Part shown: positions 13,293 to 46,389 of the stretch, piece by piece
Layout of the letters: every line of letters starts with the position of its first letter
How positions within the stretch are numbered: the stretch's first letter is position 1
Assembly: GCA_963724515.1 (NCBI GenBank)
Contig: CAVRUU010000003.1
Coordinates: 450,724-514,723, forward strand
Direction: 5' to 3'
Length of the DNA: 64,000 bases
From: Candidatus Eiseniibacteriota bacterium
Lineage (GTDB): Bacteria; Eisenbacteria; RBG-16-71-46; SZUA-252
Made by a program: the position numbers and the translations under genes
Notes under the pieces: model-generated
Database searches by the model: none
Told to the model about the DNA's origin: nothing
The model's input: the letters and a program-made list of their open reading frames with translations, nothing else

Positions 13293-13472
13293 CGAGTAGC
13301 GCCGGCGCCAATCGAAACCTTCCCGCTCGGCCCCCCGTACTGAGGGCGGGCCGCCCTTGCGCGGAATCGACCGCAACCTTCCGCGGGGACTGCCTATCGA
13401 ATCCAATGCGCGAACAGGTCGCGCGCGGCTTCCGTCGCGCGGGCCGACCGCGCATCCACGGAGGGCCGGGCC

Positions 13473-14582
13473 ATGAAGCGCATTGTCCCTGGGATTTCGG
13501 CGCTGGCATGCGCCTGCCTCATCCTCGCCGCTCGAGTGCCCGCTGACGCGGAGGGCGCGAAGAACCTCGCGCCGGGCCGGCACGTCCTCGAGGGTCCGGA
13601 AGTCTCGATCTACAACATCGCGGGCGAAATGACCGTGGTCGAGGGCACGGGGCGCTCGGTCGAGGTCGAGATCACCGCCGGGGGCGCGGACGCGGGCCGA
13701 CTCACCGTCGAGGAGACGACCGTGAAGGGCATCCCGTCCCTGCGCGTCCTCTACCCCGAGGACCACATCGTCTACCCACAGTTCGGTTACGGTCCTCCGG
13801 ACGGGTTCAGCTCTTCCTCGTTCGGATACGGCAACCGGAGGTTCCGTGTGACGGGACGCGGGCCGGGCCTCGAGGCGCACGCCGACATCCGGGTCCTGGT
13901 CCCGCGCGGCAAGACGGTCCACCTGCACCTGGCCGTGGGCCGGGGCTCGGCAACGGGCGTGGACGGCGACATCTCCTTCGAGGGGGCATCCTCCTCGATT
14001 CAGGCGGAGCGGGTATCCGGCGCGCTTCGCGTGGACGTCGGCTCGGGAAACATCGACGTCTCGCGCTGCCGGGCCGAAGTCGTCGCGGAAACCGGGTCGG
14101 GGAACATCACGATCAGCGAAGTGGACGGGAACCTCTCGGCGGACGCGGGGTCGGGAAACGTCAGCCTGAGGCGTGTCGGCGCCGAGAGCATCGCCATCGA
14201 CGCGGGCTCCGGCTCGATCACCGGTTCCGACATCCAGGTCAAGAGCATGAGCGCCGACTGCGGGTCGGGCGAGATCGATCTCGACGGGACCTCGGCCGGA
14301 AAACTCGCGCTCGAGGCCGGGAGCGGCTCGGTCCACCTTCGCCTCACGAAGAACATCGACGAGCTGGCAATCGAGGCGGGATCGGGATCGGTGCGGCTCG
14401 AGGCGCCCGAAAGCCTGAGCGCCAAGTTCCGGATCGAGTGCCCGAGGAGGCAGCTCCACATCGCGTTCCCCACCGAGGTCCAGCGCGCGAACGACGACGT
14501 GACGGTGGGAACGATCGGGAGCGGAAGAGGATCGATTCACATCGACGCCGGCTCGGGCCGGGTCGATCTCGTGCGGATCTAG
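13473..14582 (+). CDS. DUF4097-type beta-solenoid repeat protein (putative adhesin), secreted
   Basis: 369-aa ORF with signal peptide MKRIVPGISALACACLILAARVPADA. It has at least 8 repeats of the GSG(N/S/E)(I/V) unit (GSGNIDVS, GSGNITIS, GSGNVSLR, GSGSITGS, GSGEIDLD, GSGSVHLR, GSGSVRLE, GSGRVDLV). Confidence 0.7.
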   Translation: MKRIVPGISALACACLILAARVPADAEGAKNLAPGRHVLEGPEVSIYNIAGEMTVVEGTGRSVEVEITAGGADAGRLTVEETTVKGIPSLRVLYPEDHIVYPQFGYGPPDGFSSSSFGYGNRRFRVTGRGPGLEAHADIRVLVPRGKTVHLHLAVGRGSATGVDGDISFEGASSSIQAERVSGALRVDVGSGNIDVSRCRAEVVAETGSGNITISEVDGNLSADAGSGNVSLRRVGAESIAIDAGSGSITGSDIQVKSMSADCGSGEIDLDGTSAGKLALEAGSGSVHLRLTKNIDELAIEAGSGSVRLEAPESLSAKFRIECPRRQLHIAFPTEVQRANDDVTVGTIGSGRGSIHIDAGSGRVDLVRI

Positions 14583-16519
14583 ACCCCGAACGCGACCGGA
14601 TCCCACGGCACGCCCAGCTCCGTGGGAGGCGCCATGTACCCGGCGAGCGCGGAGGCCGCGACCACGGGCGGGCTCGCGAGGTATCCCTCGCCGCCGACGC
14701 CCATTCGATTCTGCCAGTTCCGGTTGAACGAGGTGATCGCGCGCTCCCCCTTGGTGAGCGCGTCCGGCCCCTGGCCGAAACAGGGGCCGCACCAGGATTG
14801 TCTGATCTCGCCCCCTACCCCTCGGAAGACCGAAGCGATCGATTCCCCCATGAGGCGCGGGTCGGGACGCTCGATCAATCGCTTCACCGTGCCGCTCCCC
14901 GGAAAGATCACGAACTCCGCGCCCTTCGCGATGCGATCGATCCCGCGCCCGCGCGCGGCCAGGAGCACGAGCGCCGCCTGGAGCAGATCGTCGTAGCCGC
15001 CGTTCGTGCACGAGCCGATCATCGCCTTGGCGAAGGTGATCCGCTCCTTCGCGACTTCCTCGGCCGGGAAGGCGTTCCCGGGGCTGAAGGGTTTCGCGAT
15101 CATCGGCACGACCGAGGAAAGGTCGTGTCTCTCGTCGATATCCCAGCGCACGTCCTCACCCGGAGCGACCCTCGGATAACGGAGCGCAAAACCCCGCTCG
15201 CGGTACCAGGACTCGGTCACCTCGTCCTGGGCGAAGATGCCGTTCATCGCTTCCCCTTCGGCCATCATGTTGGCGATGGTGTTCCGGTACGGAATGGGAA
15301 GCTCCTGGTTCTGGTCCACGAACTCCACGCTCATCCCCTGCGACTGCTTCGTCCCCCATCCTTGCAGCAGCTTGAGCACGATGTCCTTCCCGCTCACCCA
15401 CGGCTGGAGCTTCCCCGCGAACACGACCCGGCGCTGCTTCGGCACCGTGAAGTACACGGCGCCCGTCGCCCATCCGAATCCCAGCGTCGTGCTCCCCACC
15501 CCGATGCCCACCGCGCCGTAGGCGCCGTAGGCGCGACTGTGGGAATCGGCGCCGGGGTAGAAGCCTCCGGGGAGGATCAACCCTTGCTCGGGGAAATAGA
15601 AATGGAAGATCCCGGTCCCCGGCGGCGCGTAGTGCGGGGCGCCGATCGCGTAACGCTCCGCGAACTCGCGCGAGATGGAGGTCTGCTTCTCGTCCGCGTC
15701 CTTGCCGGTGAAGACGAAGTGATCGTTGGCGATCGCGACGCGAATCGGCGGGACATCCCCGGCGCCGAGGATCTGGCGAAACGTGTGGATCGCGAACGGG
15801 GCCGTGCCGTCCGAGGCAGGAAGCAGATCCGCGTACACCTCGACCGTCGCGCCCGGTTTCACTTCGGCGCGCTTGTCCACGCGATGCGCCCAGACGATCT
15901 GCTCGGTGCTGGACATGGAGCGGGCTTCCGCGTAACCCGGAAACACGATGCTCATCGGCTTGATACCGTCCCTGAGCTCGCGCCTTCCCATTTCGACGAT
16001 GCCGCCGCCGCGCCGGATCTCCTCTTCCTTGGGCGTGAGCGGCAGCGCGGTGTAGCTCTTCCCCCGCGTGAGGTTCTTCAGCGCGCGCGTCTCGGGGTTG
16101 AATTCGAGGTCGTCGCCGTCCCCCGCGTCCTCGACGGCCTCGGGGCTCTGGGCGAAGTGGAGACCGAGGTTGAGCGCGTTGCGGCGAAAGATGTCGCCCA
16201 TGCCCGCTCCGCAGACGATCACCATCGTCGAGCTCCGCCTCCTCGGCGACCGCCTTCAGCCCCGCGGGCGACATCTCGCGCGAGGAGCCGATCGCGAAGC
16301 GATCCCCCGCGACGAGGAAGCTCTCGCCGGCGTGAACGCGGGCCCGGAAATCGGGCATGAGGTGGCGGAAGGCGCCCTCCTTCCAGCGCTTGTCGAGCGT
16401 GGCGAGGCTCTCGGAGACGCAGTCCTGCGCGGGCGTGATCTGGTCGGTGTCGATCGCGTCGCGCTTCTTCCCGGGACGCTTCGGATCCCAGAGGATGAGC
16501 GCCTTGCCGCGGACGGGCG

Positions 16520-16523
<4 letters not shown>
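14579..16523 (-). CDS. Aconitase/isopropylmalate-dehydratase superfamily protein with N-terminal swivel (LeuD-like) domain; one frame disruption
   Basis: Two track ORFs (15156..16523 N-terminal part, 14579..16225) join inside the swivel domain: FLVAGDRFAIGSSREMSPAGLKAVAEEAELD | MVIVCGAGMGDIFRRNALNLGL. Fe-S ligand contexts MIGSCTNGG and SWCGPCFGQG. Span length is 3n+1 (extra nt near 16226). ATG 16523 overlaps the kinase stop (ATGA). Confidence 0.7.
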
Positions 16524-19005
<2,482 letters not shown>

Positions 19006-33523: not shown

Positions 33524-35629
33524 TCACTTTGCTTTCGCCATGGCGGGCTCCGCCGCGGCGGCCTCCCTCGCGGGCTTCGGCGCCGGCTCCGGGCTCAGGT
33601 GCCGGACGAACCACTCGCGGATGAAGTGGAGGCGCGCGACCCTGCGCGAGGGCGTGCCCCCACGCGAGAGCCCGTGGCTCTCCCCCGGGAAGAGGACCAT
33701 CTCCACGTCGCGACGCAGCAGCTTGAGCGACGTATAGAGCTGCTCGGCCTCTTCCACCGGGCACCGGTGGTCTTCCAGGCTGTGCAGGATGAGAAGCGGG
33801 GTCTTGATGTTCTCCACGTACGTGATGGGCGACATGCGGCGGTAGTCCGGAGAGTCTCTCCAGGGCTGGTCGCCGAACTCGGGCACGGCGTCGTCGCTGA
33901 AGTCGCCCGCGAGGAGAAGCGTCTTGAGATCCACGACGCTTCGCTGCGTGGCGGCCGCCTTGAAGCGGTTCGTGTGACCCACAATCCAGTTGGTCATGTA
34001 GCCGCCGTACGAGCCGCCCGTGACCCCGAGCCTCGCGGGGTCGATCTCGGGGTAACGACGGAGCGCCTCGTCCGTGACGCGCATGAGGTCCTCGTAGTCG
34101 GGGCCTCCCCAGTCCACGACGATCGCCCGCGCGAACGCCTCTCCGTATCCCTGGGCGCCGCGCGGGTTCGAGAAGAGGACGTAGAACCCGGCGCTCGCGA
34201 GCATCTGGAATTCATGGAAGAAGCAGGCTCCGTACTGGATTCGCGGGCCGCCGTGGATCTCGAGCACCATCGGGTATTTCTTCCGGGCGGGATCGGCGTT
34301 CGGAGGCTTGAGCATCCAGCACTGGACGCGGTGGCCTTCCGGCATGTCCACCCAGAACTCCTCGGGCGCTCCGACGGCGAGAGTCTCGAAGAGCTTCGCG
34401 GTCGGGCGCGCGAGGGGCGTGATCGCACCGGTGGCGGGGTCGAGGCGCGCGACCGTCCCCGCGTCGGTGTGATCGCACCGGATGACCGCGAGATCCTTGG
34501 CGCCGGCGGAACCGGTCACGGCCAGGAGCGCGAGCGCTCCGGACGTGACGCTACGCGGCGTGCCCCCCTTCGGGGACACCGCGTAGAGGTGGGTCGAGCC
34601 CTGATCGCTGAGGAGGTAGTAGAGCGTTCCTCCGTCGGCGGACCAGACCGGCGGCACCGCGTCGTGGAAATCGCGCAGGTCCGTGCCCATGAGGTCCAGC
34701 GCCGAGCGATCGAAGTCGGGGGTCAGGTTGCGTGCCGGACCGCCCTGCGCCGGCACGATCCAGACGTGGAAGTTCTTCACGCCCCAGGCGTCGGTCTCGT
34801 CATCGTTCCCCAGAAAGGCGATCTCCTTCCCGTCCGGAGACCAGGCCGGCGCGAATGCCGTCCCGGGCTGAGGGGTCAGGTTCCGCGGCTCGCCCCCCGT
34901 CGCGGGTATGAGCCAGAGATCGCACACCGTCGCGTGATAGTCGGCGTCTGGGAGCCGGTTCGCCGGAACGACGAGCCACTTGCCGTCCGGCGACCACACG
35001 GCGGTCCCGTGGTCCCACGCTCCGCTCGTGAGCGGGCGCGCTTCGCGGGTCGTGACGTCGAGCACGTGGACCTGAAACCGGGATTCCGGCAGGAAGCCCT
35101 GGCCGTCTTCCTTGTAATGGAGCCGCGTGAGATGCATGAAGGTCGGAGGCTTCCGGTCCTTCTTCTCGTCCTTCGCCTCGGCCGCGTGCTTCGCCGCGAT
35201 CGAGCCGGGAAGATGCCCGGTCTCGGGCGGATCGTTCGCGCGATGGCAGAACGAGATCTTGGAACCGTCGGAGGACCACGCGAGCCCGCCGATCTTGCCG
35301 TCGAGATCTGTCAGCCGCTCGGCTTCCCCGCCTTCCAGCGAGAGTCGATAGATCTGCGCCTTCGTCTCGCGCCGGTCCGAGACGAACGCGATCGATTTCC
35401 CGTCCGGGTGCCAGACGGCGCTTCCGTTCTTGTGCTCTCCGAACGTGAGGCGGCGGGGCTCCCCCCCCGCGAGCGGGACGAGCCAGAGGTGCGACTGGTA
35501 ACCGTCCTCTTCGGGATCGATGGTCCGGACCTGGTAGACGACGCGCGTGCCGTCGGGTGAGAGCGCGACGGCATCCACGAATTGGAGCTGGAGGAGGCTT
35601 TCTGGCGTAACCGGTTTTCGCTCGGGCAT
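33524..35629 (-). CDS. S9 family serine peptidase (prolyl oligopeptidase / acylaminoacyl-peptidase type) with N-terminal beta-propeller
   Basis: 701-aa intact ORF. Repeated SPDG(T/K) propeller blades. Catalytic GGSYGGYM (Ser), later D and H contexts (LLILHSLEDHRCP ... PGESHG). Confidence 0.85.
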   Translation of the reverse strand: MPERKPVTPESLLQLQFVDAVALSPDGTRVVYQVRTIDPEEDGYQSHLWLVPLAGGEPRRLTFGEHKNGSAVWHPDGKSIAFVSDRRETKAQIYRLSLEGGEAERLTDLDGKIGGLAWSSDGSKISFCHRANDPPETGHLPGSIAAKHAAEAKDEKKDRKPPTFMHLTRLHYKEDGQGFLPESRFQVHVLDVTTREARPLTSGAWDHGTAVWSPDGKWLVVPANRLPDADYHATVCDLWLIPATGGEPRNLTPQPGTAFAPAWSPDGKEIAFLGNDDETDAWGVKNFHVWIVPAQGGPARNLTPDFDRSALDLMGTDLRDFHDAVPPVWSADGGTLYYLLSDQGSTHLYAVSPKGGTPRSVTSGALALLAVTGSAGAKDLAVIRCDHTDAGTVARLDPATGAITPLARPTAKLFETLAVGAPEEFWVDMPEGHRVQCWMLKPPNADPARKKYPMVLEIHGGPRIQYGACFFHEFQMLASAGFYVLFSNPRGAQGYGEAFARAIVVDWGGPDYEDLMRVTDEALRRYPEIDPARLGVTGGSYGGYMTNWIVGHTNRFKAAATQRSVVDLKTLLLAGDFSDDAVPEFGDQPWRDSPDYRRMSPITYVENIKTPLLILHSLEDHRCPVEEAEQLYTSLKLLRRDVEMVLFPGESHGLSRGGTPSRRVARLHFIREWFVRHLSPEPAPKPAREAAAAEPAMAKAK

Positions 35630-35642
35630 GATCGTCTCCGAT

Positions 35643-36704
35643 CTATTTGATACCGCTCTTGAATCGGTTGATCTGGTCTTTCAGGTACTGGTCGCTCGGG
35701 GAGTAGGAGAGCGCCAAGGTCTCCACCTCGATCGCCTTGGCCGCGTTTCCGCTACGGTAGTGGACCTCCGCGAGCGTGTCGAGTATCTCCGCGTTCTTCG
35801 GCTCGAGTGCCGCGGCCCGCTCGGCCGCCTTCAGCGCCTCCTCGAGATGGACGCCGTTGGTGGCGCAGATCCAGGCGAGCCCGTTCAGCGTGGACGCGTC
35901 GACGTCTTTCCGCGCGAGCGCATGCGCCATCGATTCCGCGACGCGCTCGCGCTCGAGCCGCGCCAGGTCCTTCTTCCCCGCCTTCTCGTAGTACTGGGCG
36001 TAGCGGATGTGGGCCTCCGCCAGACGCTGCCCCTCGAGGAGCCGGTAGACTCGGATCAGCTCGTTGATCGGGTCCTTGTGATCCTCCACCCGAAGATCCA
36101 CGTAACGCGTGCGGTACTCGGGATACTGCTCGCTGGGGCGCACGACGACGATCGCGGCGGACTCCATCCCCCTCTTGTCTCCTCCCGCCGCTTGCCCCGC
36201 GACGAGCGCCGCGAGGAGCCGCTCGGCAAGCTCCCCTCCGGTGTCGAGGAATGCCCGCTCCATTCCCTTCACGACTGCCTCGCCCGCGAGGATGTTCCCC
36301 TGGATCGCGTACCCCGGCCCGGTCACGCCTCCAGCCCAGTCGGAGCAGAGCTTTCCCGTGAAATTGGCGCTCCGGCCGCGAGCGTCCACCACCCCGAGCT
36401 GCCGGTGCGCGTTTCCCGAATCCGCGTCGAGCAGGGCGCGCATCACCTCCGGCGCCGGCTTCCCGGCGCGGAGCATCGCGAGTCCCGCGGGACCGAATGT
36501 CTCGTTCGTCGATGCCTGGGTGGCGATCGCGCCCACGCCCGCTTCGGCCCACGGCACCGCCATTCCGACACTGAAGGCCCGGGATTGGACCGCGATGCCC
36601 AGCTCCTGCGTCGCCGAGTCGTACGCGGCGATCGAGAACGTGGCGAAGGCCGGAGTGGCGGCGGCGAGGAACGTGACGGCTGCGGCGAGGACGAGCGCTT
36701 TCAT
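35643..36704 (-). CDS. Secreted DUF1028 (Ntn-hydrolase fold) - TPR fusion protein, copy 2
   Basis: Starts MKALVLAAAVTFLAAATPAFA|TFSIAAYD. DUF1028 core (GIAVQSRAFSVG, WAEAGVGAIATQA, GNILAGEAVV, AAGGDKRGMESAAIVV). The C-terminal ~120 aa are TPR-like. ATG 36704 overlaps the copy-1 stop (ATGA). Confidence 0.65.
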   Translation of the reverse strand: MKALVLAAAVTFLAAATPAFATFSIAAYDSATQELGIAVQSRAFSVGMAVPWAEAGVGAIATQASTNETFGPAGLAMLRAGKPAPEVMRALLDADSGNAHRQLGVVDARGRSANFTGKLCSDWAGGVTGPGYAIQGNILAGEAVVKGMERAFLDTGGELAERLLAALVAGQAAGGDKRGMESAAIVVVRPSEQYPEYRTRYVDLRVEDHKDPINELIRVYRLLEGQRLAEAHIRYAQYYEKAGKKDLARLERERVAESMAHALARKDVDASTLNGLAWICATNGVHLEEALKAAERAAALEPKNAEILDTLAEVHYRSGNAAKAIEVETLALSYSPSDQYLKDQINRFKSGIK

Positions 36705-37807
36705 TGCTGCGTCCCTCCCGCGCCCTTGCGGAAGCGCTCGATCTGGTCTTTCAGATACTGGCTCTTCGGATCGATGGTCGCTGCGCGCGACTCGACCTCG
36801 ATCGCCTTGGTCGTGTTCCCCTGGCGGAAGTAGAGCTCCGCGAGCGTGTCCAGGATGTCCACGTTCCGCGGCTCGAGCGAAACGGCCCGCTCGGCAGCCT
36901 TCAGCGCGCCCTCGAGGTAGAGGTCGTGCGTCGCGCACGCCCACGCGAGCCCGTTCAGCATCGAGGCGTCGCGTTCCTTCCGAGACAGCGCGCGGCGCAG
37001 GATCTCCGCCACGCGCTCGCGCTCCCGGGCCGCCAGATCCGTTCGTCCCTCGGCCTCGTACACCTCCGCGTAGTGGAAGTGGTTGTCCGCGCCGTGGAAG
37101 CCTTCCTGAATCTCGAGCAGCCGCCGCAGCTCCTTGATCGGGGTCTTGTGGTCCTCGACCCTGAGATCGAGGTAGCGCTGCGTGAACTGCGGACGCGTCG
37201 CGCTGGGCCGAACCACGAGGATCGCGGCGGATTGCATGCCCCGCTTGTCCCCGCCTGCCGCCTGCGCGGCGTCCAGCGCCGCGAGGAGCCGCTCCGCCAT
37301 CTCGCCCTGCGTCTCGCGATACGCCTTCGCCATCCCGGCGACCACCGCGGGGCCCGCGAGGATGTTTCCCTGGCAGGCGAAGTCGGCGCCCTTCTCTCCC
37401 CCCGCCCAGTCGAGGCATTTGCTGCCGGTCCAGTTGGCCACCCCTCCTTGGGCATCCGCGATCCCGAGCTGGCGTGAATCCCACACGGAGTCGGTCGCGG
37501 CCAGGGCGCGAAGCACATCGGGCGCGGTGAGTCCCGTGCGCAGCAGACCGAGCGCCTTGAGCCCGAACGAAGGGTCCACCCGCGCCTGGGTCGCGACGGC
37601 GCCCACGCCCGCCTCGGCCCAGGGGACGTCGGTGCCCACGCTGAAATACTTGGACTGCACGGCGACCCCCAGCTCGTGCGTGACCGAATCGAACGCCACG
37701 ATCGAGAACGTGCCGCGGTCGGAGGAGGCGAAGGCGGGTGTGGCGAGGAGTACGAGCCAGGCAGAGACAGCCAGAACTACCCAGCGGCGAAGCCTGATTT
37801 CAGCCAT
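36701..37807 (-). CDS. Secreted DUF1028 (Ntn-hydrolase fold) - TPR fusion protein, copy 1
   Basis: Starts MAEIRLRRWVVLAVSAWLVLLATPAFASSDRGTFSIVAFD. Same core and TPR tail as copy 2, roughly 55-60 percent identical by eye. The track ORF extension to 38002 is rejected. Confidence 0.65.
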   Translation of the reverse strand: MAEIRLRRWVVLAVSAWLVLLATPAFASSDRGTFSIVAFDSVTHELGVAVQSKYFSVGTDVPWAEAGVGAVATQARVDPSFGLKALGLLRTGLTAPDVLRALAATDSVWDSRQLGIADAQGGVANWTGSKCLDWAGGEKGADFACQGNILAGPAVVAGMAKAYRETQGEMAERLLAALDAAQAAGGDKRGMQSAAILVVRPSATRPQFTQRYLDLRVEDHKTPIKELRRLLEIQEGFHGADNHFHYAEVYEAEGRTDLAARERERVAEILRRALSRKERDASMLNGLAWACATHDLYLEGALKAAERAVSLEPRNVDILDTLAELYFRQGNTTKAIEVESRAATIDPKSQYLKDQIERFRKGAGGTQQ

Positions 37808-37900: not shown

Positions 37901-38794
37901 ATGAGTGTCGATCCCGTGAAACCCCGGTCCCCCCTCGATCCGCGCTACTACCAGATCGCCGTTCTGTCCGGCCTCCTCGTCTACGGCCTGGGCTGGCTCC
38001 ACTTCGACATCACGCCCGGCCGGGCCGCGCTCCTCCTGGGCACCTCGCTCCTCACGCAGTACGTCTGCACGAGACTCTGGCGGCTTCCCAAGTTCGATCC
38101 GAAGAGCGCTTTGATCTCCGGGCTCTCCCTATGCCTCCTGTGTCGGACGAACCTCGCGGCGGTGGCCGTCCTGGCCGCCGTCATCACGATCTCGAGCAAG
38201 TTCATCGTGAGGTGGAAGGGAAAGCACATCTTCAACCCCACCAACTTCGGCCTCGTGTTCCTGATGCTGGTCGGAGCGCCCCTGTGGGTCTCCCCGGGCC
38301 AGTGGGGCAGCGTCGCCTACTTCGGATTCCTGATGGCATGCCTCGGCGGTCTTGTCGTGAACCGGGCTGCCAGGAGCGATGTGACCTACGCGTTCCTGAT
38401 CTCCTTCGCGGCGCTCCAGTTCGGACGGGCCTTCTGGGCCATGCAGCGCTGGGAGGTCCCCATCCATAGAATGGAGAGCGGCGCGCTCCTGCTGTTCGCC
38501 TTCTTCATGATCTCCGATCCCAAGACGACGCCGAATTCACGCGCCGGCAGAATTCTCTTCGCCTGTCTCGTGACCGCGTTTGCCGGATTCATCCAGTTCG
38601 GCCTCTACCGTACGAATGGGATTCTATGGTCGCTCGCGATCTGGTCGATGGCCGTGCCGCTGATCGACCGGCTCCTGCCCGGGCTACGCTACGAATGGAG
38701 TCGTGTGAGATCGAAACCCCAACCCAAAGGAGTACCCGATGAAGCGGTTCCTGCTCACAGGCAGCCTGCTCTGGATCGCCCTGTCCTGGGCTGA
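37901..38794 (+). CDS. RnfD/NqrB-family-like polytopic membrane protein (orphan, no other rnf/nqr genes)
   Basis: Starts MSVDPVKPRSPLDPRYYQIAVLSGLL (GGAAGGG upstream of ATG 37901). About 8 TM segments. Family motifs KHIFNPTNFGLVFL and FFMISDPKTTP. I see no SGAT-type FMN attachment motif. The 3' end overlaps the next gene by 56 nt. Confidence 0.55.
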   Translation: MSVDPVKPRSPLDPRYYQIAVLSGLLVYGLGWLHFDITPGRAALLLGTSLLTQYVCTRLWRLPKFDPKSALISGLSLCLLCRTNLAAVAVLAAVITISSKFIVRWKGKHIFNPTNFGLVFLMLVGAPLWVSPGQWGSVAYFGFLMACLGGLVVNRAARSDVTYAFLISFAALQFGRAFWAMQRWEVPIHRMESGALLLFAFFMISDPKTTPNSRAGRILFACLVTAFAGFIQFGLYRTNGILWSLAIWSMAVPLIDRLLPGLRYEWSRVRSKPQPKGVPDEAVPAHRQPALDRPVLG

Positions 38795-40085
38795 TCCGGC
38801 GTCATCCTTCTGCGGCTTCTACGTCGCGCGCGGCGAGGCGAAGCTCTTCAACCACGCGTCCAAGGTCGTGATGGTGCGCGACGGCGACCGCACCGTGCTG
38901 ACCATGGCGAACGACTACAGCGGTGAGCCCAAGGAATTCGCGTTGGTCGTGCCGGTGCCGACCGTGCTGGAGAAGAGCCAGATCCACGTGGGCGATCGCG
39001 CCGTGCTGGAGCACCTGGACGCTTACTCGGCTCCGCGGCTTGTGGAGTACTTCGATCCGGATCCGTGCCGGCAGTACGCTGAGGACATGAAGGCAGCGAA
39101 CGGCGCCGTGAGGATGAGGCTGTCCGCGCCCTCCTCGCAGGCAGCCCGCGATCGCTCCCTCGGCGTCACGATCGAAGCCCGCTACACGGTCGGGGAATAC
39201 GACATCCTCATCCTCTCGGCGAAGCAGAGCGGGGGCCTCGAGACCTGGCTCACCGAGAACGGGTACACCGTGCCGGCAGGCGCGCGGCGCGTCCTCGGCA
39301 GCTACCTGCGACAGGGCATGAAGTTCTTCGTCGCCAAGGTGAACCTGGGCGAGCAGAAGCGGCTGGGGTTCTCCTACCTCCGCCCGCTCCAGATGGCCTA
39401 CGAATCCCCCAAGTTCATGCTTCCGCTCCGGCTCGGGATGGTGAACGCGGACGGACCTCAGGAATTGTTCGTCTTCGCGATCACGAAGAACGGCCGCGTG
39501 GAGACGACCAACTACCGGACGGTCCGACTCCCCGAGGGCGTCGACATCCCCGAGTACGTGAAGGACGAATTCCCACGCTTTTACCGCGCGATGTTCACGC
39601 GGCAAGTCGAGAACGAGAATCGCGAGGCGGTCTTTCTCGAGTACGCGTGGAACATGAGCTGGTGCGATCCCTGCGCGGCCGATCCGCTGAATGCGGATGA
39701 ATTGCGAAGCCTCGGTGTGTTCTGGCTTGGCTCTCCGGGACCGCAAGGACCCGCGCCCGGCGGGCCGCAGAACACGTTCATCACCCGGCTCCATGTCCGC
39801 TACGACGCACGGCACTTCCCGGAGGACCTGGTCTTCCAGGAGACGGCCGACCAGAGCAATTTCCAGGCTCGCTACGTGCTGCGGCACCCCTGGAAGGGGG
39901 ACACGTCGTGCGAGGGGTACCGCGAATATCGCCGGACCGTCCGGGAGCGCCGCGCCAAGGAGGCCGAGACGCTGGCGTCGCTCACGGGATGGGACCTGGC
40001 CTCGATCCGGAGAAAGATGGGCGGGGGCTGGTCCGACGAACCGGACAAGCCGTCCCTCTGGTGGGAGCGCATCTGGAATAACTAA
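38739..40085 (+). CDS. Secreted DUF2330 domain protein, copy 1
   Basis: 448-aa ORF. Signal peptide MKRFLLTGSLLWIALSWA, then FCGFYVARGEAKLFN ... VVPVPTVL ... DPDPC ... YDILILSA ... FFVAKVNL ... WCDPC ... ITRLHVRYD ... WWERIW. This matches my recollection of the DUF2330 family (PF10092). Confidence 0.6.
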   Translation: MKRFLLTGSLLWIALSWADPASSFCGFYVARGEAKLFNHASKVVMVRDGDRTVLTMANDYSGEPKEFALVVPVPTVLEKSQIHVGDRAVLEHLDAYSAPRLVEYFDPDPCRQYAEDMKAANGAVRMRLSAPSSQAARDRSLGVTIEARYTVGEYDILILSAKQSGGLETWLTENGYTVPAGARRVLGSYLRQGMKFFVAKVNLGEQKRLGFSYLRPLQMAYESPKFMLPLRLGMVNADGPQELFVFAITKNGRVETTNYRTVRLPEGVDIPEYVKDEFPRFYRAMFTRQVENENREAVFLEYAWNMSWCDPCAADPLNADELRSLGVFWLGSPGPQGPAPGGPQNTFITRLHVRYDARHFPEDLVFQETADQSNFQARYVLRHPWKGDTSCEGYREYRRTVRERRAKEAETLASLTGWDLASIRRKMGGGWSDEPDKPSLWWERIWNN

Positions 40086-40232
40086 TTTCGGCTGGACACG
40101 GCCGGCGCTGGGTGTAGCGTTGTCGGGGTCGGCGCGAACCACTCCGCTCACACGGCGCCGGCGGTCCTCCGATCCCCCTCCCCCCTCCCTTGGAGCCCCC
40201 TCTCCGCCCGCTGGAATTGGGAGGCTCGTGTC

Positions 40233-41607
40233 ATGAATCGGAGCTGCTTCACGGATCGGATCCGTCTCGCCCTTGCCGGGGTCCTCACCCTTCTTCTGGT
40301 GTCGGTAGCCGCGCCCGAGGCGCCCGCGTTCTGCGGCTTCTACGTCGCCCAAGGCGACGCCAAGCTCTACAACCAATCCTCGAGGGTCGTGCTGGCGCGC
40401 GACGGCGACCGGACCGTGCTCACCATGGCGAGCGACTTTCAGGGCGACCCGAAAGAGTTCGCGGTGGTGATCCCGGTGCCGGTCGTGCTGAAGAAGGAGC
40501 AGGTCCATATCGCGGATCAAGGCATTGTGGACCGTCTGCAGGATTACTCGGTGCCGAGGCTGGTGGAGTACACGGATCCGAATCCGTGCCCGCAGCGGGC
40601 AACGGTCACTACTTCTGATGACTCGCGGTCGCTTCCGGTCGCTCACTACCGAGGCGCTGTCGCCCTCAAGGGCGAGGTCATCATCCAAGCCCGCTACAAG
40701 GTCGACGAGTACGACATCCTCATCCTGTCCGCCGACGAGGGAAAGGCGCTCGAACGCTGGCTGCTCGCCAACGGCTACCGCATCCCCGAGGGGGCCTCTC
40801 GAGTGCTGCAAAGCTACATCCGGCAGGGGATGTTCTTCTTCGTCGCCAAGGTGGACCTGAGCGAGCAGAAGCGACTGGGCTACACGTTCCTCCGCCCGAT
40901 CCAGGTGGCGTACGAGTCGCCGAAGTTCATGCTCCCGATACGGCTCGGCATGGTGAACGCCCAAGGGACCGCAAGAGATGTTCGTGTTCGCGCTGACCCG
41001 CGCGGGCCGCGTGGAGGCCACGAACTACCGGACCCTCCGTGTGCCGACGGATCTCGACGTTCCCGAATTCGTGAAGCCCGAATTCCCCGATTTCTACCGG
41101 CGAGTATTCACGAGGCTGCACGAGCGCGAGGGCGGCAATGCGGTCTTTCTCGAGTATTGCTGGAACATCGTCCCGAACCAGCCCTCGTGCGATCCGTGCA
41201 CCGCTCCCTATCTGAGACCTGAGGAGCTGCGCACGCTGGGGGCGTTCTGGATCTCCCCCAATTCGAGCCCGCCGAGTGTCGCCGTCCTGACGAGGCTCCA
41301 CCTACGCTACGACCGGGATCACTTCCCGGAGGATCTCGTGTTCCAGGTGACCGCGGACCGGGAAAACTGGCAGGCCCGCTACGTGCTCCATCATCCGTAC
41401 TCCGGAACGGACGAATGCCCCGAGCTGGCCGCGTATCACAAGACGGTCTGGGATCGGCGCCACAAGGAGGCCGAGAACTATTGCGATCTCACGGGAACGG
41501 CCATGGGTGATGCGCGCACGCGAATGGGGGTCACCGAGAACTGGTCCGTGCCGTACGAAACCGCTACCTGGTGGGAGCGGATCTGGAAAGTGATGGAGCG
41601 GAAATGA
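40233..41607 (+). CDS. Secreted DUF2330 domain protein, copy 2; one frame disruption
   Basis: Signal peptide, then FCGFYVAQGDAKLYN. Collinear with copy 1 through ORFs 40233..41222 and 40978..41607. The junction is at a GGG run 40965-40967 (LGMVNAQG|PQEMFVFALT after removing one G). Span length is 3n+1. Confidence 0.6.
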
Positions 41608-41626: not shown

Positions 41627-42166
41627 CTAGGACCGCGTGGGCGCGGATCGTCTCCCCGCATCCCCCCTGATCCGCCCGACCGCGCGCAGCACCGTCATCA
41701 TGGCGTTCAGAACGAAGACGAGCGGGTTCAATCGTCTGTCGGCGTACAGTAGCAGGACGTAGGCCCAGCCGATCGGGTAGCCGCGGCGCGCCCGCCGCGC
41801 GAGGTCGCCGAGGCGCTCCCATCCCGTGTGGATCAGCTCCACCTCGGTGCCCCCTCCGGCGGCGACGAATCGCATCTCGATCTGCTGCGACGTCTCGGGC
41901 TTCATTCCGGGATGCCAGGTGAAATCGACGCGGCCGGGAGGCTCCCACCGGGTCACCGTGCCCCACGTGTGCTCTTCTCCCCCGCGGCCCACCTCGTAGA
42001 TCCGGCCGCCGACCCGGCCCTCGAATACGACGCGCTCGGCGTGCTCGCCGCAGACCGAATGGCTGCGGAGCGGCCACCAGTCCCCCATCTTCTCCGTGAA
42101 TCGCCGGAACGCGGCGTCGGGTGTCCAGGGAACGGTGATGGTCTTCCGGAGCGGAGAGAGCGTCAT
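41627..42166 (-). CDS. SRPBCC (AHSA1/START-like) domain protein
   Basis: Starts MTLSPLRKTITVPWTPDAAFRRFTEKMGDWWP (GGAGG upstream of ATG 42166). The typical ArsR-SRPBCC gene pair. It has a hydrophobic C-terminal tail. Confidence 0.65.
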   Translation of the reverse strand: MTLSPLRKTITVPWTPDAAFRRFTEKMGDWWPLRSHSVCGEHAERVVFEGRVGGRIYEVGRGGEEHTWGTVTRWEPPGRVDFTWHPGMKPETSQQIEMRFVAAGGGTEVELIHTGWERLGDLARRARRGYPIGWAYVLLLYADRRLNPLVFVLNAMMTVLRAVGRIRGDAGRRSAPTRS

Positions 42167-42179
42167 GGGTCCTCCCGGG

Positions 42180-42485
42180 TCACGCGCGCGGACGCCGCCT
42201 TCGACCGGCGTAGGCGTCGAGGACGTCATCCCAGTACGAGTCGAGATAGTCTCGAAGCGAGACGAGGCCCGCGAAGTCGACCGTGTAGATCCGCCGCGTA
42301 CCTTCCTGTCTGCTTCTCACCAACCGCGCCTTGCGGAGCACCGCCAGGTGCTGGGAGACGGCAGGCTGAGTGACGGCAACGGCCCGCGCCAGCTCTCCCA
42401 CCGCGCGCGGGCGGCGGCGCAGGCGCTCGAAGATGGCCCTGCGGGTCGGGTCCGCGAGGGCGCTGAGGGCAGTAGAATAAGCCAT
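42180..42485 (-). CDS. ArsR/SmtB family transcriptional regulator
   Basis: 101-aa ORF. ALADPTRRAIFERL ... VGELARAVAVTQPAVSQHLAVLRKARLV wHTH. Confidence 0.85.
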   Translation of the reverse strand: MAYSTALSALADPTRRAIFERLRRRPRAVGELARAVAVTQPAVSQHLAVLRKARLVRSRQEGTRRIYTVDFAGLVSLRDYLDSYWDDVLDAYAGRRRRPRA

Positions 42486-42543: not shown

Positions 42544-43110
42544 TCAGGAGGCAATACCCGCGATTCGGCATGCCTCCTGCCACTGGGCCGAAATCTCTAG
42601 TTGATCCACCCATCCACGAACGTATTGGAGATCGAGACCGTCTGCCCGGCGCTTGAGGATTTCCGCAGCGTCTTCGATTTGACGCTGCGATGCGCCGCGT
42701 TTCCCCCATTCGAGTTTGGCAAGTACGACGTCCTCGGCGGTCGCTATGGCGAGCTTCACACCGTGGAAATCGGCGGTCTCCCTCCGGTCAAACTCCCGAA
42801 GGCTGAATGGACGGGACTTCCGGATGATAAGATCGATCTTCCAGCCCGTCTTGCGGTCGACCACGTTGAACTGGCGCTGCTGTCGCAGAGCCTCCAATGC
42901 GGCGCTCTCATCTGCGTAGTACTCCGCATCCGGCAGGAGCTTGATGAAGCCGCGGATCTGATCCGAGGTCGGCGAGATCACCAAATCTATGTCCTGGGTG
43001 GCCCTCGCGACACCGTGGTAGGAACTCGCGAAGGAGCCCGTCAGCATGTAGGGGATGCCTACCCGTTCGAGAGTGCCGACAATGCGCTGGAATACTTCCT
43101 CTACGGTCAA
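42544..43110 (-). CDS. Minimal nucleotidyltransferase (Pol-beta fold) domain protein
   Basis: 188-aa ORF. NTase signature LTGSFASSYHGVARATQDIDLVI (GS ... DxD) plus a helical C-terminal region. TTG 43110 overlaps the upstream small-ORF stop (TTGA). Lower GC than the flanks. Confidence 0.55.
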   Translation of the reverse strand: MTVEEVFQRIVGTLERVGIPYMLTGSFASSYHGVARATQDIDLVISPTSDQIRGFIKLLPDAEYYADESAALEALRQQRQFNVVDRKTGWKIDLIIRKSRPFSLREFDRRETADFHGVKLAIATAEDVVLAKLEWGKRGASQRQIEDAAEILKRRADGLDLQYVRGWVDQLEISAQWQEACRIAGIAS

Positions 43111-43398: not shown

Positions 43399-46389
43399 TC
43401 ACAGCCGTTCCACCCGCTCCACCGTGAGCGTGCAGACCCCGAAGTCCTCCTCCACGCGCCCGGTGAGCAGGTAGGGAGCGTGGCTGCTCAACAGATGGCA
43501 GAAGCGGTCGTAGGCGTCGGGGAAAAACGTGGCGTCGTAGAGCGCCGTCGTGTCCTCGAAGCCGATGAACTCCATGAGCCGTTCGTCCTTCGAGTGGACG
43601 AGCTTGGACGTGACGTGCCAGCCGAGGACGGTGACGCGCTCCCCCACGTGGCGCTCGAGGTCCTTCGCCGCGATGACGCCGCGCCCGCGCATCGCGCGCT
43701 CGTGGGGCTCGAGCGGATGCGCGCTCAGGAGAAAGCCCAGCGCCTCGACCTCGTGGCGAAGCATCGTCTCGCGGTCGTACGCCGCCGCGCGCGGTGTGTC
43801 GATCGGCGTCGGCGCGAAGAGATCGAGCGTCGCTGTCGGGCGCGGTGCGGCCGTTTCCACGTAGAGCTCCCACAGGAGCTCGGCGCGTGTGCGCCCGCGG
43901 GCGATCGAATCGCATGCGCCTCCCTTCACCAGGAGCTCCGTGTCGGATGGATGGAGCGCCGCGCGGCGGCGCAGGTCCGCGAAGGACGCGAAGGACCCGT
44001 CGCGCTCCCGCGCCGCCACGATTCCCGCGGCCGCCTCCTCGTGCAGCCCCTTGAGCTGCATCAGCCCGACGCGCACGTGGCGCCCGCTTCCCGTGTACTC
44101 GCGGGCGCTCGCGTTCACGTCGGGCGGCGAGATCTTCAACCCCATGCGGCGCGACTCGGACACATAGGCGAACGTATCGAAGTAGCCCCCCCGGTTCGAG
44201 ATGACGGCCGCCATGAACTCGGCCGGGTGATGCGCGCGGAGCCACGCCGAGCGGAACGAGACCAGCGCGTAGGAGGCGCTGTGCGGCTTGCAGAATGAGT
44301 AGCCGGCGAAGGAGAGGATCATGTGCCACACCTTGTCGATCACCTCGCGCGTGACGCCTCGCCCCGCGGCTCCGGCGTAGAAGTCCGCCATGTACGCCCG
44401 GAGCGGCTTCAACGGCCGCTTCTGCCCGAGGGCTTTCCGCATGCCCTCGGCCTGCGCGAGCGAGAGCCCCGCCAGCTCCATCGCGACCTTCGTGATGTCC
44501 TCCTGGTAACACATGATCCCGTACGTCTCGTCGAGGGTGTGGCGCAACGCCGGGTGCAAGGGGTCGTACGCCCCGCCGCGGAGGCGCCTCACGTACTCGC
44601 GGATGTAGGAGTTCGCCGCGGGGCGGATCATCGAGGAGTGGATCACGAGGTGATCGAAGTCCCCCTTCCCCGCCTTTCGCTGGAGCTGGCGCATCGACGG
44701 CGACTCGGCGTAGAACACGCCGATCGTGTCCCCCGTCTCCATGAGCCGCTGCGTCGCCGGATCGTCGATCGGATTCCAGGCCCGCTCGTCGATCCTGAGC
44801 CCCGTGTTCCTCTCGACCGCGCGGATCGCGTCGCGGATCACCGCGAGGGAGCGGTTCCCGAGAAGGTCCATCTTCACGAGGCCGAAGTTCTCGACCTGGT
44901 CCTTCTCCCACTGGACGATCGGCACTCCCTTCGGCGCGATCTCGACCGGGACGTGGTCGGCGAGGGAGTCCGGCACGAGCACGATGCCCCCGCTGTGCAC
45001 GGCGAGGTGGCGCGGGTGGCCGTCGAGCGCCAACGCCTGGGCCAGGATCTCGGGCCACGGGGGCTCGAAGTCCACGTCGCGGAACCGCGCGCGGCCCGCC
45101 ATCCCGTCGATCGGGTCCTCGACTCCCCAGTGGTCCCGGAGGCGCTTCGTCACGTTCACGATCTCGGCCTCCGGCAGCCCGTACACCTTCGCGATCTCGT
45201 GGATCGCCGCCCTCGCGCGGAAGCCCACGTGGTTCGCGACCATCGCGGCGCGCACCGGCGCGCCGTTCTCCGCGAGCACGTCGAGCTGGATCTGGTCGCG
45301 CTCGTCCCACGCGAAGTCCACGTCGATGTCCGGAGGATCTTTCCGCTCGGGCGAGAGGAAGCGCTCGAAGAAGAGGTTGTGCCTCACCGGATCGACGTGC
45401 GTGATGCCGAGGAGGTAGGCCACGATGCTCGCGGCCCCCGAGCCGCGGCCGCAGATCCGCGGGGTGCGCGAGGTGATCGACTCCACGATCAGGAAGTAGT
45501 CGGCGAAGCCTTTCTCGCGGATGACCGCCAGCTCGCGGTCGAGCCGCGAGCGGACCTCGGAGCCGGGGGCGCGCCCGTACCGATGCAGGATTCCCGCCTC
45601 GCAGCGGGCGCGTAGGATCTCGAACGCCTCCCCGCGCTCGAGTGGATAGGACGGAAACACGGTCTTCCCCATCGGCCAATCGATCGCGCACTGCTCCGCG
45701 AGGAGTACCGCGTTCTCGAGCGCCTCGGGCGCGTGCGGAAACCGGGCCTCCATCTCCTCGGCGGAGAGAAAGGACCGCTCCGGCTCGGCGAGATCGTCGC
45801 GCGGCACGCGATCGAGCGTGGTGTTCCGGGCGATCGCGCGAAGCGTGTGGTGGATGCGGTGCCGCGCGCGATCCACGAAGTGGACGTCGTTCGTGGCGAC
45901 GCAGGCGATCCCTTCGGCGCGCGCCCACGCGAGGAGCGGGCGATCGGCGCGCCCCGGGACGAGCTCCGCGTAGACCGGGAGGGCGCCGCGCAGCTCCGAG
46001 AGCACGTGCCGCTCCGCGCTCAGGAGCACCAGCGAGGAGGCGTTCGCGCGGACGGCGCCCACGAGCGAGAAGCGGGGGTCCAGGTGGCGGGCCGTGAGGA
46101 CGCGGCAGAGCGAGCGGTAGCCCTCGCGGCCGCGCGCGAGGAGCACGGCGCGGGCGGGGCGCGAGGCGCCCGACGCCTCCACGACCTCCGCCCCGGCGAT
46201 CGGCTGGAGTCCCCACTCCTCGCAGATCTGGCGGTAGAAGACGAAGCCGTAGAGGGCATTCGTGTCGGTCAACGCGAAGCGGTCCATCCCGCGCTCGCGC
46301 GCCGCCTCGGCCAGGGCCTCGATCCGCTCGGCCCCGCGCATGAGGGAGTAGTGGCTATGGACGTGCAGGTGCGCGAATCGTGAGGCCAT
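43399..46389 (-). CDS. dnaE2: Error-prone DNA polymerase III alpha-type subunit DnaE2 (ImuC)
   Basis: Intact 996-aa ORF. PHP domain start FAHLHVHSHYSLMRGA, Pol III alpha core (GRGSGAASIVAYLLGITHVDP, PDIDVDF), OB-fold tail. It lies immediately downstream of imuB. Confidence 0.9.
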   Translation of the reverse strand: MASRFAHLHVHSHYSLMRGAERIEALAEAARERGMDRFALTDTNALYGFVFYRQICEEWGLQPIAGAEVVEASGASRPARAVLLARGREGYRSLCRVLTARHLDPRFSLVGAVRANASSLVLLSAERHVLSELRGALPVYAELVPGRADRPLLAWARAEGIACVATNDVHFVDRARHRIHHTLRAIARNTTLDRVPRDDLAEPERSFLSAEEMEARFPHAPEALENAVLLAEQCAIDWPMGKTVFPSYPLERGEAFEILRARCEAGILHRYGRAPGSEVRSRLDRELAVIREKGFADYFLIVESITSRTPRICGRGSGAASIVAYLLGITHVDPVRHNLFFERFLSPERKDPPDIDVDFAWDERDQIQLDVLAENGAPVRAAMVANHVGFRARAAIHEIAKVYGLPEAEIVNVTKRLRDHWGVEDPIDGMAGRARFRDVDFEPPWPEILAQALALDGHPRHLAVHSGGIVLVPDSLADHVPVEIAPKGVPIVQWEKDQVENFGLVKMDLLGNRSLAVIRDAIRAVERNTGLRIDERAWNPIDDPATQRLMETGDTIGVFYAESPSMRQLQRKAGKGDFDHLVIHSSMIRPAANSYIREYVRRLRGGAYDPLHPALRHTLDETYGIMCYQEDITKVAMELAGLSLAQAEGMRKALGQKRPLKPLRAYMADFYAGAAGRGVTREVIDKVWHMILSFAGYSFCKPHSASYALVSFRSAWLRAHHPAEFMAAVISNRGGYFDTFAYVSESRRMGLKISPPDVNASAREYTGSGRHVRVGLMQLKGLHEEAAAGIVAARERDGSFASFADLRRRAALHPSDTELLVKGGACDSIARGRTRAELLWELYVETAAPRPTATLDLFAPTPIDTPRAAAYDRETMLRHEVEALGFLLSAHPLEPHERAMRGRGVIAAKDLERHVGERVTVLGWHVTSKLVHSKDERLMEFIGFEDTTALYDATFFPDAYDRFCHLLSSHAPYLLTGRVEEDFGVCTLTVERVERL

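Follow-up and report, generated by a model that had tools for sequence, protein, structure and literature searches.

The 64,000-nucleotide stretch of Candidatus Eiseniibacteriota DNA analysed here (contig CAVRUU010000003.1, positions 450,724 to 514,723; hereafter the window) contains three co-directional genes on the plus strand, as established from the listing of open reading frames (ORFs) and their translations, which encode an RnfD/NqrB-fold membrane protein and two exported proteins of the DUF2330 family. Gene 1 (37901-38794) specifies a polytopic protein of 297 amino acids (aa), and gene 2 (38739-40085) a 448-aa exported DUF2330 protein (type a) that proves to be its conserved partner. 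The two genes overlap by 56 nucleotides (nt) out of frame, and a Shine-Dalgarno-like AAAGGAG is found 7 nt before the ATG of gene 2, within the 3' end of gene 1, in a putative translational coupling region (38715-38738). An overlap of 56-59 nt is also present in the related loci L001 and L003. Gene 3 (40233-41607) follows after 147 nt and encodes a second DUF2330 paralog (type b), 457 aa long once a frameshift at 40965-40967 has been corrected. A preliminary description of this locus, made from the sequence alone, had given the overlap, the 448-aa signal-peptide protein and the spacing correctly; of its three co-directional genes, the common orientation holds, but gene 3 is not an intact ORF, as it carries a 1-nt insertion at the site just mentioned.

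The product of gene 1, identical to the public gene call P0001, matches PF03116 (NQR2_RnfD_RnfE) with 59.3 bits (cutoff 27.7) over model positions 168-289 only, i.e., in the C-terminal half, and it carries both the KHIFNPTNFG and the FFMISDPKTTP motifs from which its RnfD/NqrB kinship had been recognized at the outset. The NCBIfam models TIGR01946 (rnfD/rsxD; 46.4 bits, cutoff 207) and NF002011 (40.4 bits, cutoff 415) are matched well below their cutoffs. Searches of the PDB sequences with phmmer recovered RnfD chains only (E 1e-6 to 1e-5), in alignments that begin just past the position of the flavinylated loop of RnfD. In C. tetanomorphum, RnfD is built from a pair of inverted five-helix repeats; the 'five-helix linker' between them (residues 140-190) covers the flavin mononucleotide (FMN) on the extracellular side and serves as the docking site for RnfG, both termini of RnfD being cytoplasmic (PMC9588780). 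The termini of gene 1 are both predicted to be cytoplasmic as well, and its FNPT and SDPKT half-helix motifs are kept and form its best-conserved part. The flavinylated linker, in contrast, is cut to about 13 residues (PLWVSPGQWGS), with P-L-W-V-S-P-G-Q-W-G invariant. The reported lack of an SGAT-type flavinylation site is borne out, since neither [ST]GA[ST] nor a relaxed variant of it occurs in the proteins of genes 1, 2 or 3; among the membrane halves of 120 fusion proteins, described below, there is no conserved [ST]GA[ST] column, the sole recurrent match (10 sequences) falling in one non-conserved column. Gene 1 is devoid of the flavin-bearing lid and keeps, at the very place where Rnf binds its periplasmic partner, a short and conserved loop on the periplasmic side.

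Gene 2 matches PF10092 (DUF2330) with 276 bits over model positions 2-278 of 279, which settles the family that had been proposed for it. Its N-terminus has the features of a Sec-type signal peptide (residues 1-23, 38739-38807), namely an MKR n-region, a hydrophobic core of 14 residues and small residues at positions -3 and -1, and cleavage is predicted at a signal peptidase I site, A21-S-S23 / F24-C25-G26. The sequence F-C-G-F-Y-V-A directly follows the signal peptide; C110 lies 85 residues past C25, and a C-D-P-C pair (309-312), C391 and a terminal WWERIW complete a set of elements that, as first described, recur in gene 3. The N-terminal Cys residue was considered as a possible lipoprotein Cys and rejected as such, because position -1 is Phe or Met and not Gly, Ala or Ser. 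In an exhaustive search of 1.84 billion representative proteins at E<=1e-3, 5,950 clusters at 50% identity matched DUF2330, and identity between phyla is about 60%, an unusual level for exported proteins. Literature and annotation searches yielded no function and no solved structure for DUF2330, nor any publication on the family or on its pairing with RnfD-like proteins, and sequence and profile searches of the PDB found no relative. Additional domains sought in long DUF2330 proteins were uninformative, as Pfam detects DUF2330 only, apart from one AMP-binding_C match that is probably a gene-call artefact.

The association between genes 1 and 2 was examined in two samples of loci. The first, built with one genome per GTDB species by scanning with a DUF2330 alignment, comprises 80 loci 59-84% identical to gene 2, and the second comprises 80 metagenome loci; taxa were assigned by record title, and the RnfD-like and DUF2330 genes were called with hidden Markov models (HMMs) built from homologues. 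In 76 of the 80 species-representative loci, the gene directly upstream, on the same strand, is RnfD-like. Of the other four, three are devoid of upstream sequence, while L041 (Methylococcaceae) has 6 kb upstream and no RnfD-like gene. Among the metagenome loci, 66 of 80 have a significant RnfD-like match on the same strand, which is immediately upstream in 65; those without one include ten in which the upstream sequence does not exceed 170 nt, two with weak remnants only (L105 and L133), and L086 and L136, which have no such gene. The order is reversed at one locus, L112 (2531-4455), where the RnfD-like gene lies downstream of DUF2330, the sole such case seen. Gene 2 orthologues beside an RnfD-like gene are 59-90% identical across both samples. 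The species sample covers Eisenbacteria, Dormibacterota, Acidobacteriota (Vicinamibacterales, Thermoanaerobaculia, Holophagales), Nitrospirota, Methylomirabilota/Rokubacteria, Binatia, Myxococcota/Deltaproteobacteria, Alpha- and Gammaproteobacteria, Verrucomicrobiota and Spirochaetota, so that the pairing spans about ten phyla. In the reverse check, two RnfD-like orthologues (62-65% identical) were each found to precede two DUF2330 genes in otherwise unrelated neighbourhoods. All-against-all clustering of the other ORFs of 82 loci revealed no further family in more than about ten loci, and the module is therefore self-contained. DUF1028-TPR proteins, the S9 peptidase and the multicopper oxidases of some loci were rejected as components of the module, none being a conserved neighbour across the 82 loci. 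The genetic coupling of the RnfD-like and DUF2330 genes is near-obligate, and their co-occurrence across genomes, which had been singled out for checking, is confirmed by both samples and by the gene fusions described below.

Public pipelines (PGAP, JGI) call gene 1 homologues 'RnfD', 'NqrB' or 'enediyne biosynthesis protein E5', and such names agree with the idea that gene 1 is the remnant of a degraded rnf/nqr operon or a part of an enediyne-type cluster, and that DUF2330 lies next to it by accident. This is extremely improbable. The gene 1 orthologues are 60-91% identical and have an intact ORF in hundreds of genomes, and their coupling to DUF2330, fusions included, is hardly that of an incidental neighbour. 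As had been observed for the other rnf/nqr subunits, no rnf/nqr, ApbE or FMN-bind gene is found near the module here or in the relatives examined; phmmer with single-sequence Mesorhizobium queries, of limited sensitivity, gave no ApbE or FMN-bind match in the 64-kb window, and genes for polyketide synthases (PKS), E3 (DUF1702), E4 and E10 are absent from the window flanks and from 160 related loci. The conservation and fusion data effectively refute the idea of a remnant.

Fusions of the two genes were found repeatedly. Among the best 150 DUF2330 clusters, ten are proteins of 710-790 aa that begin with an RnfD-like part and end with a DUF2330 part, and a search with P0245 returned at least 120 fusion clusters, all with both Pfam domains; the set includes ALA57477.1, encoded in the complete genome of Nitrospira moscoviensis, a cultured bacterium. 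The sampled loci contain 13 in-frame fusions, from Vicinamibacterales, Nitrospira, Thermoanaerobaculia and other Acidobacteriota. Given the out-of-frame overlap of 56-59 nt, a single indel can fuse or split the genes, which fits the scattered distribution of the fusions. At the fusion junction, a hydrophobic helix is followed by A at -3 in 103 of 120 sequences, A or G at -1 in all 120, and then the invariant F-C-G. This pattern suggests that the junction is a signal peptidase I site, and that the mature DUF2330 chain would start with F-C-G-F-Y-V even in fusions.

An AlphaFold2 (AF2) model computed from the fusion alignment reached a mean predicted local distance difference test score (pLDDT) of 83.2 and a predicted TM-score (pTM) of 0.83. 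It displays ten membrane helices and, after a charged cytoplasmic linker, an additional transmembrane (TM) helix and a mixed alpha/beta domain; as the termini of the membrane part are cytoplasmic, fusions need the extra TM helix to place DUF2330 outside the membrane. Since the larger domain makes up only 57% of the chain, a defined interface is implied, and in this model the pTM is too high for two independently oriented domains. In Foldseek comparisons with the PDB, the membrane part is most similar to RnfD (8rbq_D; TM-score 0.67, E 1.6e-8, about 300 aligned columns), the TM-scores being 0.59-0.67 for RnfD chains and 0.43-0.50 for NqrB chains; urea transporters and Amt/Mep/Rh proteins follow distantly. 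Gene 1 had been called a 'short' RnfD, which needs correction, as it spans the whole fold and only the flavinylated-Thr linker is missing. The model of gene 2 alone, computed by AF2 from a less diverse alignment, has a mean pLDDT of 63.5, and its Foldseek matches are noise. An Ntn-hydrolase fold was considered for DUF2330 and rejected, as Foldseek returned no match to that abundant fold.

At the genetic level it is essentially shown that the products of genes 1 and 2 form a 1:1 membrane-periplasm complex, as far as can be judged from sequences. The core DUF2330 subfamily is the obligate, often fused, partner of a flavin-less RnfD-fold protein, and two 'hypothetical' annotations become one module, defined and amenable to experiment. 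Its carriers, which include Nitrospira, Acidobacteriota, Methylomirabilota and methanotrophs, are environmentally important.

What the complex might do can be approached through its cysteines. In 95 close homologues, all five (C25, C110, C309, C312 and C391) are invariant, and so is W308-C-D-P-C312. Among the best 150 representatives, C25 is found in 100 of 113, C110 in 135 of 140, C309 in 116 of 138, C312 in 117 of 141 and C391 in 110 of 114, the CxxC cysteines being conserved in about 84% of the 138-141 representatives; the terminal WW-x-x-x-W occurs in only about a quarter of these 150. When the count is restricted to representatives spanning every internal position (99 sequences), C110 is found in 98 of them and C391 in 96, while both CxxC cysteines are present in 82, both absent in 16 and only one present in a single sequence. 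Thus, C110 and C391 are near-universal and the CxxC is kept or lost as a unit, which supports the cysteine conservation that the preliminary description expected in the wider family. Of the three outcomes that it had named as fatal, namely no HMM match, no adjacency in relatives and unconserved cysteines, all were examined and none was observed. The simplest reading of the pattern is that C110 and C391 form a disulfide, that the CxxC is a separable unit, and that the lone Cys at mature position 2 may be functional. The W-C-D-P-C motif, which follows a hydrophobic beta-strand, resembles the WCGPC of thioredoxin and the WCEPC of ResA.

Comparison with known systems brings in further elements. 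With RnfD and NqrB, gene 1 shares the ten-helix fold, the FNP and (S/T)DP half-helix motifs and the cytoplasmic termini, and the order of genes 1 and 2 recalls rnfD-rnfG and nqrB-nqrC, in which the gene is followed by that of a periplasmic partner with an N-terminal hydrophobic helix. The flavinylated-Thr linker is deleted in gene 1, however, the partner is DUF2330 and not FMN-bind, and, unlike in the Rnf and Nqr complexes, no RnfA/B/C/E/G or NqrA/C/D/E/F genes are found near the module, in the flanks or in relatives. Closer in layout are the two-subunit Nqr/Rnf-like complexes (Meheust et al. 2021, PMC8238504; mSystems 2024, PMC11334425), where a TM subunit without the flavinylation Thr is tightly paired with an extracytosolic subunit, as it is here, and where the extracytosolic partner is reported to reach into the non-covalent flavin site of the TM subunit (PMC11334425). 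They differ from the present module in having a fused NqrF-like NAD-binding domain (PF00175), FMN-bind and ApbE, whereas gene 1 carries PF03116 only, with no PF00175. The membrane subunit is of a fold already known, and the two-part layout has a described analogue in these complexes.

Flavin-less RnfD-like relatives were also sought by tblastn against plasmids, and three contexts proved informative. On a Mesorhizobium plasmid, FMN-bind, ApbE and a 503-aa RnfD-like protein are encoded together, in what corresponds to the 'NQR/RNF-like system' of the literature (PMC8238504). The Metabacillus plasmid pB218 encodes a 265-aa RnfD-like protein that is 34% identical to gene 1 (E 5e-32) and constitutes its closest relative found outside the DUF2330-linked set. 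It has the short P-x-Q-W-G linker, the DPRxxQI N-terminus and no flavinylation site, and it too is translationally coupled to an extracytoplasmic CxxC protein, since its gene overlaps that of a membrane-anchored AhpC/TSA redoxin (CQAC). In that case, however, the partner is of the thioredoxin fold, peroxiredoxin-like and encoded upstream, and the pair is a single, uncharacterised locus of a monoderm. In Streptomyces and Serratia, enediyne-type E3 (DUF1702), E4 (CRTAC1/VCBS) and E5 genes are found together. At 26% identity over 193 aa (E 2e-11), SgcE5 of Streptomyces globisporus C-1027 matches gene 1 better than RnfD does and less well than the redoxin-linked Metabacillus protein. Like gene 1, E5 (UnbU) is an RnfD-family membrane protein without Rnf partners that lies beside a secreted protein, in its case E4/CRTAC1-VCBS, and JGI gives the enediyne E5 name to many gene 1 orthologues; E5 is longer (374 aa), however, and belongs to PKSE/E3/E4/E10 cassettes whose genes are not found here. 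To our knowledge, no function has been assigned to E5 either. A variant of this context was noticed on the Serratia proteamaculans plasmid NZ_MT039191 (L168, 2026-7720), where a DUF1702, a VCBS-repeat and an RnfD-like gene form a trio without a polyketide synthase and adjoin genes for a histidine N-alpha-methyltransferase and a LuxR regulator. RnfD-fold proteins are thus met repeatedly as the membrane partner of an extracytoplasmic protein, and redox proteins make up two of the partner types. The RnfD/NqrB fold might be a general membrane adaptor, for RnfG/NqrC, FMN-bind, redoxins, enediyne E4 and now DUF2330, and the module may bear on the role of the enediyne E5 proteins.

A side observation on gene 1 concerns its residues 13-19 (37937-37957), a cytoplasmic D-P-R-x-Y-Q-I that precedes the first TM helix. 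The motif is at least 90% conserved in the fusions and common to the redoxin-linked Metabacillus homologue (DPRISQI; L166, 5986-6783). The N-terminal arm of RnfD binds RnfC, and by analogy this motif could be a docking site for a cytoplasmic partner.

The reading that is tentatively favoured, with marked reserve, is that the module is a thiol-based extracytoplasmic redox device fed through its membrane subunit. Gene 1 would be the ten-helix part of the RnfD/NqrB fold, minus the periplasmic flavinylated linker of about 50 residues, with its FNPT and SDPKT half-helices lining the cavity where RnfD holds FMN, and a non-covalent flavin or quinone might occupy the vacated FMN cavity. Gene 2 would be exported by Sec, cleaved at A-x-A/F-C-G and docked, as a chain of about 425 residues, on the periplasmic face of gene 1, through which electrons would travel from membrane to DUF2330 domain or the other way. 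Redox activity would reside in the thiols of the W-C-D-P-C pair and of the lone Cys at mature position 2, and the putative C110-C391 disulfide would be structural. A redox or cofactor-handling role is inferred on circumstantial support, because of the WCxPC unit and the lone N-terminal Cys, the redoxin-linked sister protein of Metabacillus, and the precedent of the Thr-less Nqr/Rnf-like complexes (PMC11334425). The DsbB-DsbA and DsbD/CcdA-TlpA/ResA systems can be likened to it as well, though only in the way they work, with a polytopic membrane protein and a periplasmic W/F-C-x-x-C protein; the folds are unrelated on both sides, and the membrane subunit is without conserved cysteine pairs here.

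Several observations speak against such a redox device. The module has no cytoplasmic electron-input domain but short tails only, no flavin, haem or Fe-S motif was found in its proteins, and no ApbE or FMN-bind gene lies nearby. The membrane subunit has one well-conserved Cys (C83 in fusion numbering, 117 of 120), which is absent from the Metabacillus relative, and with a single conserved Cys a relay of the DsbD type is unlikely. A thioredoxin fold of DUF2330 was not detected, as no thioredoxin-family Pfam model matched at E<=0.01 and no thioredoxin-fold protein occurred among the Foldseek matches of the fusion model or the gene 2-alone model. Conserved cysteines of Sec-exported proteins are most often engaged in structural disulfides. 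Lastly, a distant DUF2330 subfamily has no CxxC at all, and the redoxin pairing has been seen at one locus only.

The resemblance of the membrane part to urea transporters and Amt/Mep/Rh proteins, behind RnfD/NqrB, brings to mind a different role, in which gene 1 would be an RnfD-fold channel or transporter for an ion or a small or hydrophobic molecule, and DUF2330 a non-redox periplasmic enzyme, binding domain or gate. The cysteines would then all be structural, or the N-terminal one would be a catalytic nucleophile or a metal ligand. Such an arrangement is the chief competitor of the redox device and only slightly less probable. It agrees with the description of RnfD as a transporter-like pair of inverted five-helix repeats (PMC9588780), with the fact that the channel-lining FNPT and SDPKT are the best-conserved parts of gene 1, and with the lack of redox cofactor motifs. 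The enediyne E5 relatives adjoin secreted CRTAC1/VCBS proteins in a hydrophobic-polyene pathway and not in an electron-transfer chain, and the conservation of DUF2330, with about 60% identity between phyla and numerous His, Asp, Glu and Arg residues that do not vary, is that of an enzyme. On the other hand, no substrate, transporter-partner or metabolic gene is conserved nearby in the 82 loci, and the thioredoxin-like WCxPC and the redoxin-linked relative would be left unexplained. We also know of no RnfD-family member that acts as a plain channel.

The structure of the DUF2330 part leads to a third possibility, as its fold is apparently either novel or similar to that of the baculovirus protein P35. 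In a Foldseek search of the PDB, the DUF2330 part of the fusion model matched only P35 (1p35; probability 0.89, TM-score 0.33). Among the viral models of BFVD, one uncharacterised Tupanvirus protein ranks first, above the P35 proteins of a granulovirus (E 1.8e-3) and of an entomopoxvirus (E 4.7e-3, TM-score 0.41) and a p49 protein (E 1e-2), and the P35 alignments cover about 255-275 of the approximately 300 P35 residues. P35 acts through a reactive loop that is cleaved at D87, and its action depends on Cys2 (PMC7863939). Mature DUF2330 would similarly start with F1-C2, and its invariant D-P-D-P-C (mature positions 83-87), after which comes a disordered loop 15-36 residues long, falls where P35 has its reactive site, D84-Q-M-D87. 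The loop is hypervariable, with a top-residue frequency of 0.21 versus 0.57 elsewhere and pLDDT values below 50. DUF2330 could on these grounds be taken for a bacterial relative of P35/P49, a membrane-docked periplasmic suicide substrate, or 'trap', for a protease, with the exposed loop as bait and the Cys at mature position 2 capturing or protecting the acyl-enzyme intermediate. This is quite improbable.

The TM-scores of the P35 matches are 0.22-0.41 and their root-mean-square deviations 8-12 Angstrom, for Foldseek probabilities of 0.89-1.00, and no sequence signal accompanies them, with an hhalign probability of 0.2% between the DUF2330 profile and a P35 profile built from recovered P35 sequences (L172-L175); HMMER searches of the PDB miss 1p35, and the poor gene 2-alone model did not match P35. 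With regard to function, the Cys is residue 2 after Phe and offers no free N-terminal Cys, a Pro after Asp makes a poor protease site, and a ten-helix RnfD-fold partner of a protease trap would be unexplained. The positional agreement between the two proteins, in the Cys at mature position 2 and in a flexible loop beyond about residue 87, may be a coincidence, and P35 differs in being a cytosolic viral protein without a membrane partner. The similarity is best regarded as a lead, not as evidence of membership. That DUF2330 is the first cellular relative of the P35/P49 fold and acts on envelope proteases, or on another acyl-enzyme, as a covalent trap or sensor is a proposition to which we give little credence. 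If it were true, the membrane subunit would be an anchor or a signal transducer, several thousand bacterial lineages would carry a reactive-loop periplasmic protein on a flavin-less RnfD-fold partner, and a bacterial origin would be indicated for a viral apoptosis inhibitor without a known cellular homologue; the origin of the viral caspase inhibitor would be addressed if the fold match itself holds.

Gene 3 is split between one frame (40233-40964) and the +1 frame (40966-41607), and appears in the ORF listing as two entries in different frames, 40233-41222 and 40978-41607. A DUF2330 HMM matches the two frames in succession, at positions 9-240 and then 238-454, and the N-terminal part alone scores 197 bits with PF10092. 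Around the frameshift, the window reads CAAGGGACCGCAAGAG, as compared with CAAGGACCCCAGGAG (Q-G-P-Q-E) in L001; where intact orthologues have CAA-GGA-CC(N) (Q-G-P), the window has CAAGGGACC, with one extra G at 40965-40967, that is, GGG versus GG. A programmed +1 frameshift was considered and ruled out, because the zero frame continues without a stop for another 85 codons and the orthologues simply have one G fewer. Gene 3 is either a very recent pseudogene that has just begun to be lost or an artefact of assembly. At another locus, L004 (8001-11600), the same module as in L003 is broken into about ten frameshifted fragments, apparently through noise in the assembly. Artefactual single-base indels can therefore arise in these high-GC genes, which bears on the frameshift of gene 3.

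Once repaired, gene 3 is 56% identical to gene 2, slightly below the roughly 60% that had been estimated by eye. It clusters with the second copies found at L001, L008 and L009 (61-64% identity; two of these loci are labelled Eisenbacteria) and is 50-57% identical to any first copy, the first copies being 66-75% identical among themselves; since gene 3 is closer to the second copies than to any first copy, the duplication is old. The closest relatives of the locus, L169 and L171 (89-90% identical), have genes 1 and 2 only, behind the same S9 peptidase and DUF1028-TPR genes, and the absence of gene 3 from both indicates that the second copy is dispensable in this lineage. Independent recent duplications are found in L003 and L080, where the copies are 79-81% identical. 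The fused form of a two-paralog arrangement was met in P0241 (963 aa) and P0244 (987 aa), each with two tandem DUF2330 domains in one polypeptide.

Other members of the family depart further from the core. Proteins of the distant subfamily mentioned above (alignment A4; L086, 740-2257) start with A-x-A-M-C-G, followed by a Pro-rich insert, and have no CxxC; several of them end with a Gly-rich stretch, a TM helix and basic residues, resembling a sorting signal. A scan aimed at this CxxC-less subfamily returned mainly the core family and one distant locus, L086, the one sampled, which has no RnfD-like neighbour. The plasmid search for DUF2330 found only a decayed copy, with no RnfD-like gene beside it, on a plasmid of Deinococcus sp. 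QL22 (L085, 7001-8250), where it is recovered as four tblastn pieces and annotated as two short coding sequences.

As for the surroundings of the module, its flanks of about 6 kb encode a patatin, an SDR protein, an S9 peptidase, two DUF1028-TPR proteins, an AHSA1 protein, an ArsR regulator and DnaE2. PADLOC and PHROGs searches gave no matches, so that the module is not a known defence or phage family; Rfam yielded one match only between 35.0 and 43.5 kb, at chance level, and the promoter and terminator scans gave background levels. The two upstream neighbours are DUF1028 and TPR proteins according to Pfam and are divergently transcribed, as first described, but they do not belong to the module, the DUF1028-TPR pair being a matter of local, lineage-level synteny only. 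On the minus strand, at 33524-37807, a 701-aa S9/tricorn-like peptidase is followed by the two tandem DUF1028-TPR paralogs, which have signal peptides; this trio lies upstream of the module in L169 and L171 and not in L001, L003 or the wider samples, and it may be a separate exported Ntn-hydrolase-like/peptidase unit. Downstream of the module, and also on the minus strand, a 101-aa ArsR-family regulator overlaps a 200-aa AHSA1/SRPBCC protein (41627-42485), and an adjoining ORF of 188 aa (42544-43110) has no Pfam match. Farther on, at 43399-46389 (minus strand), lies the gene for a DnaE2-type error-prone polymerase (PHP, DNA_pol3_alpha, finger and HHH_6 domains); in L001, the module is likewise followed by this DnaE2-type gene, together with one for an IMS (ImuB-like) protein (12666-16881), which indicates partial synteny on that side.

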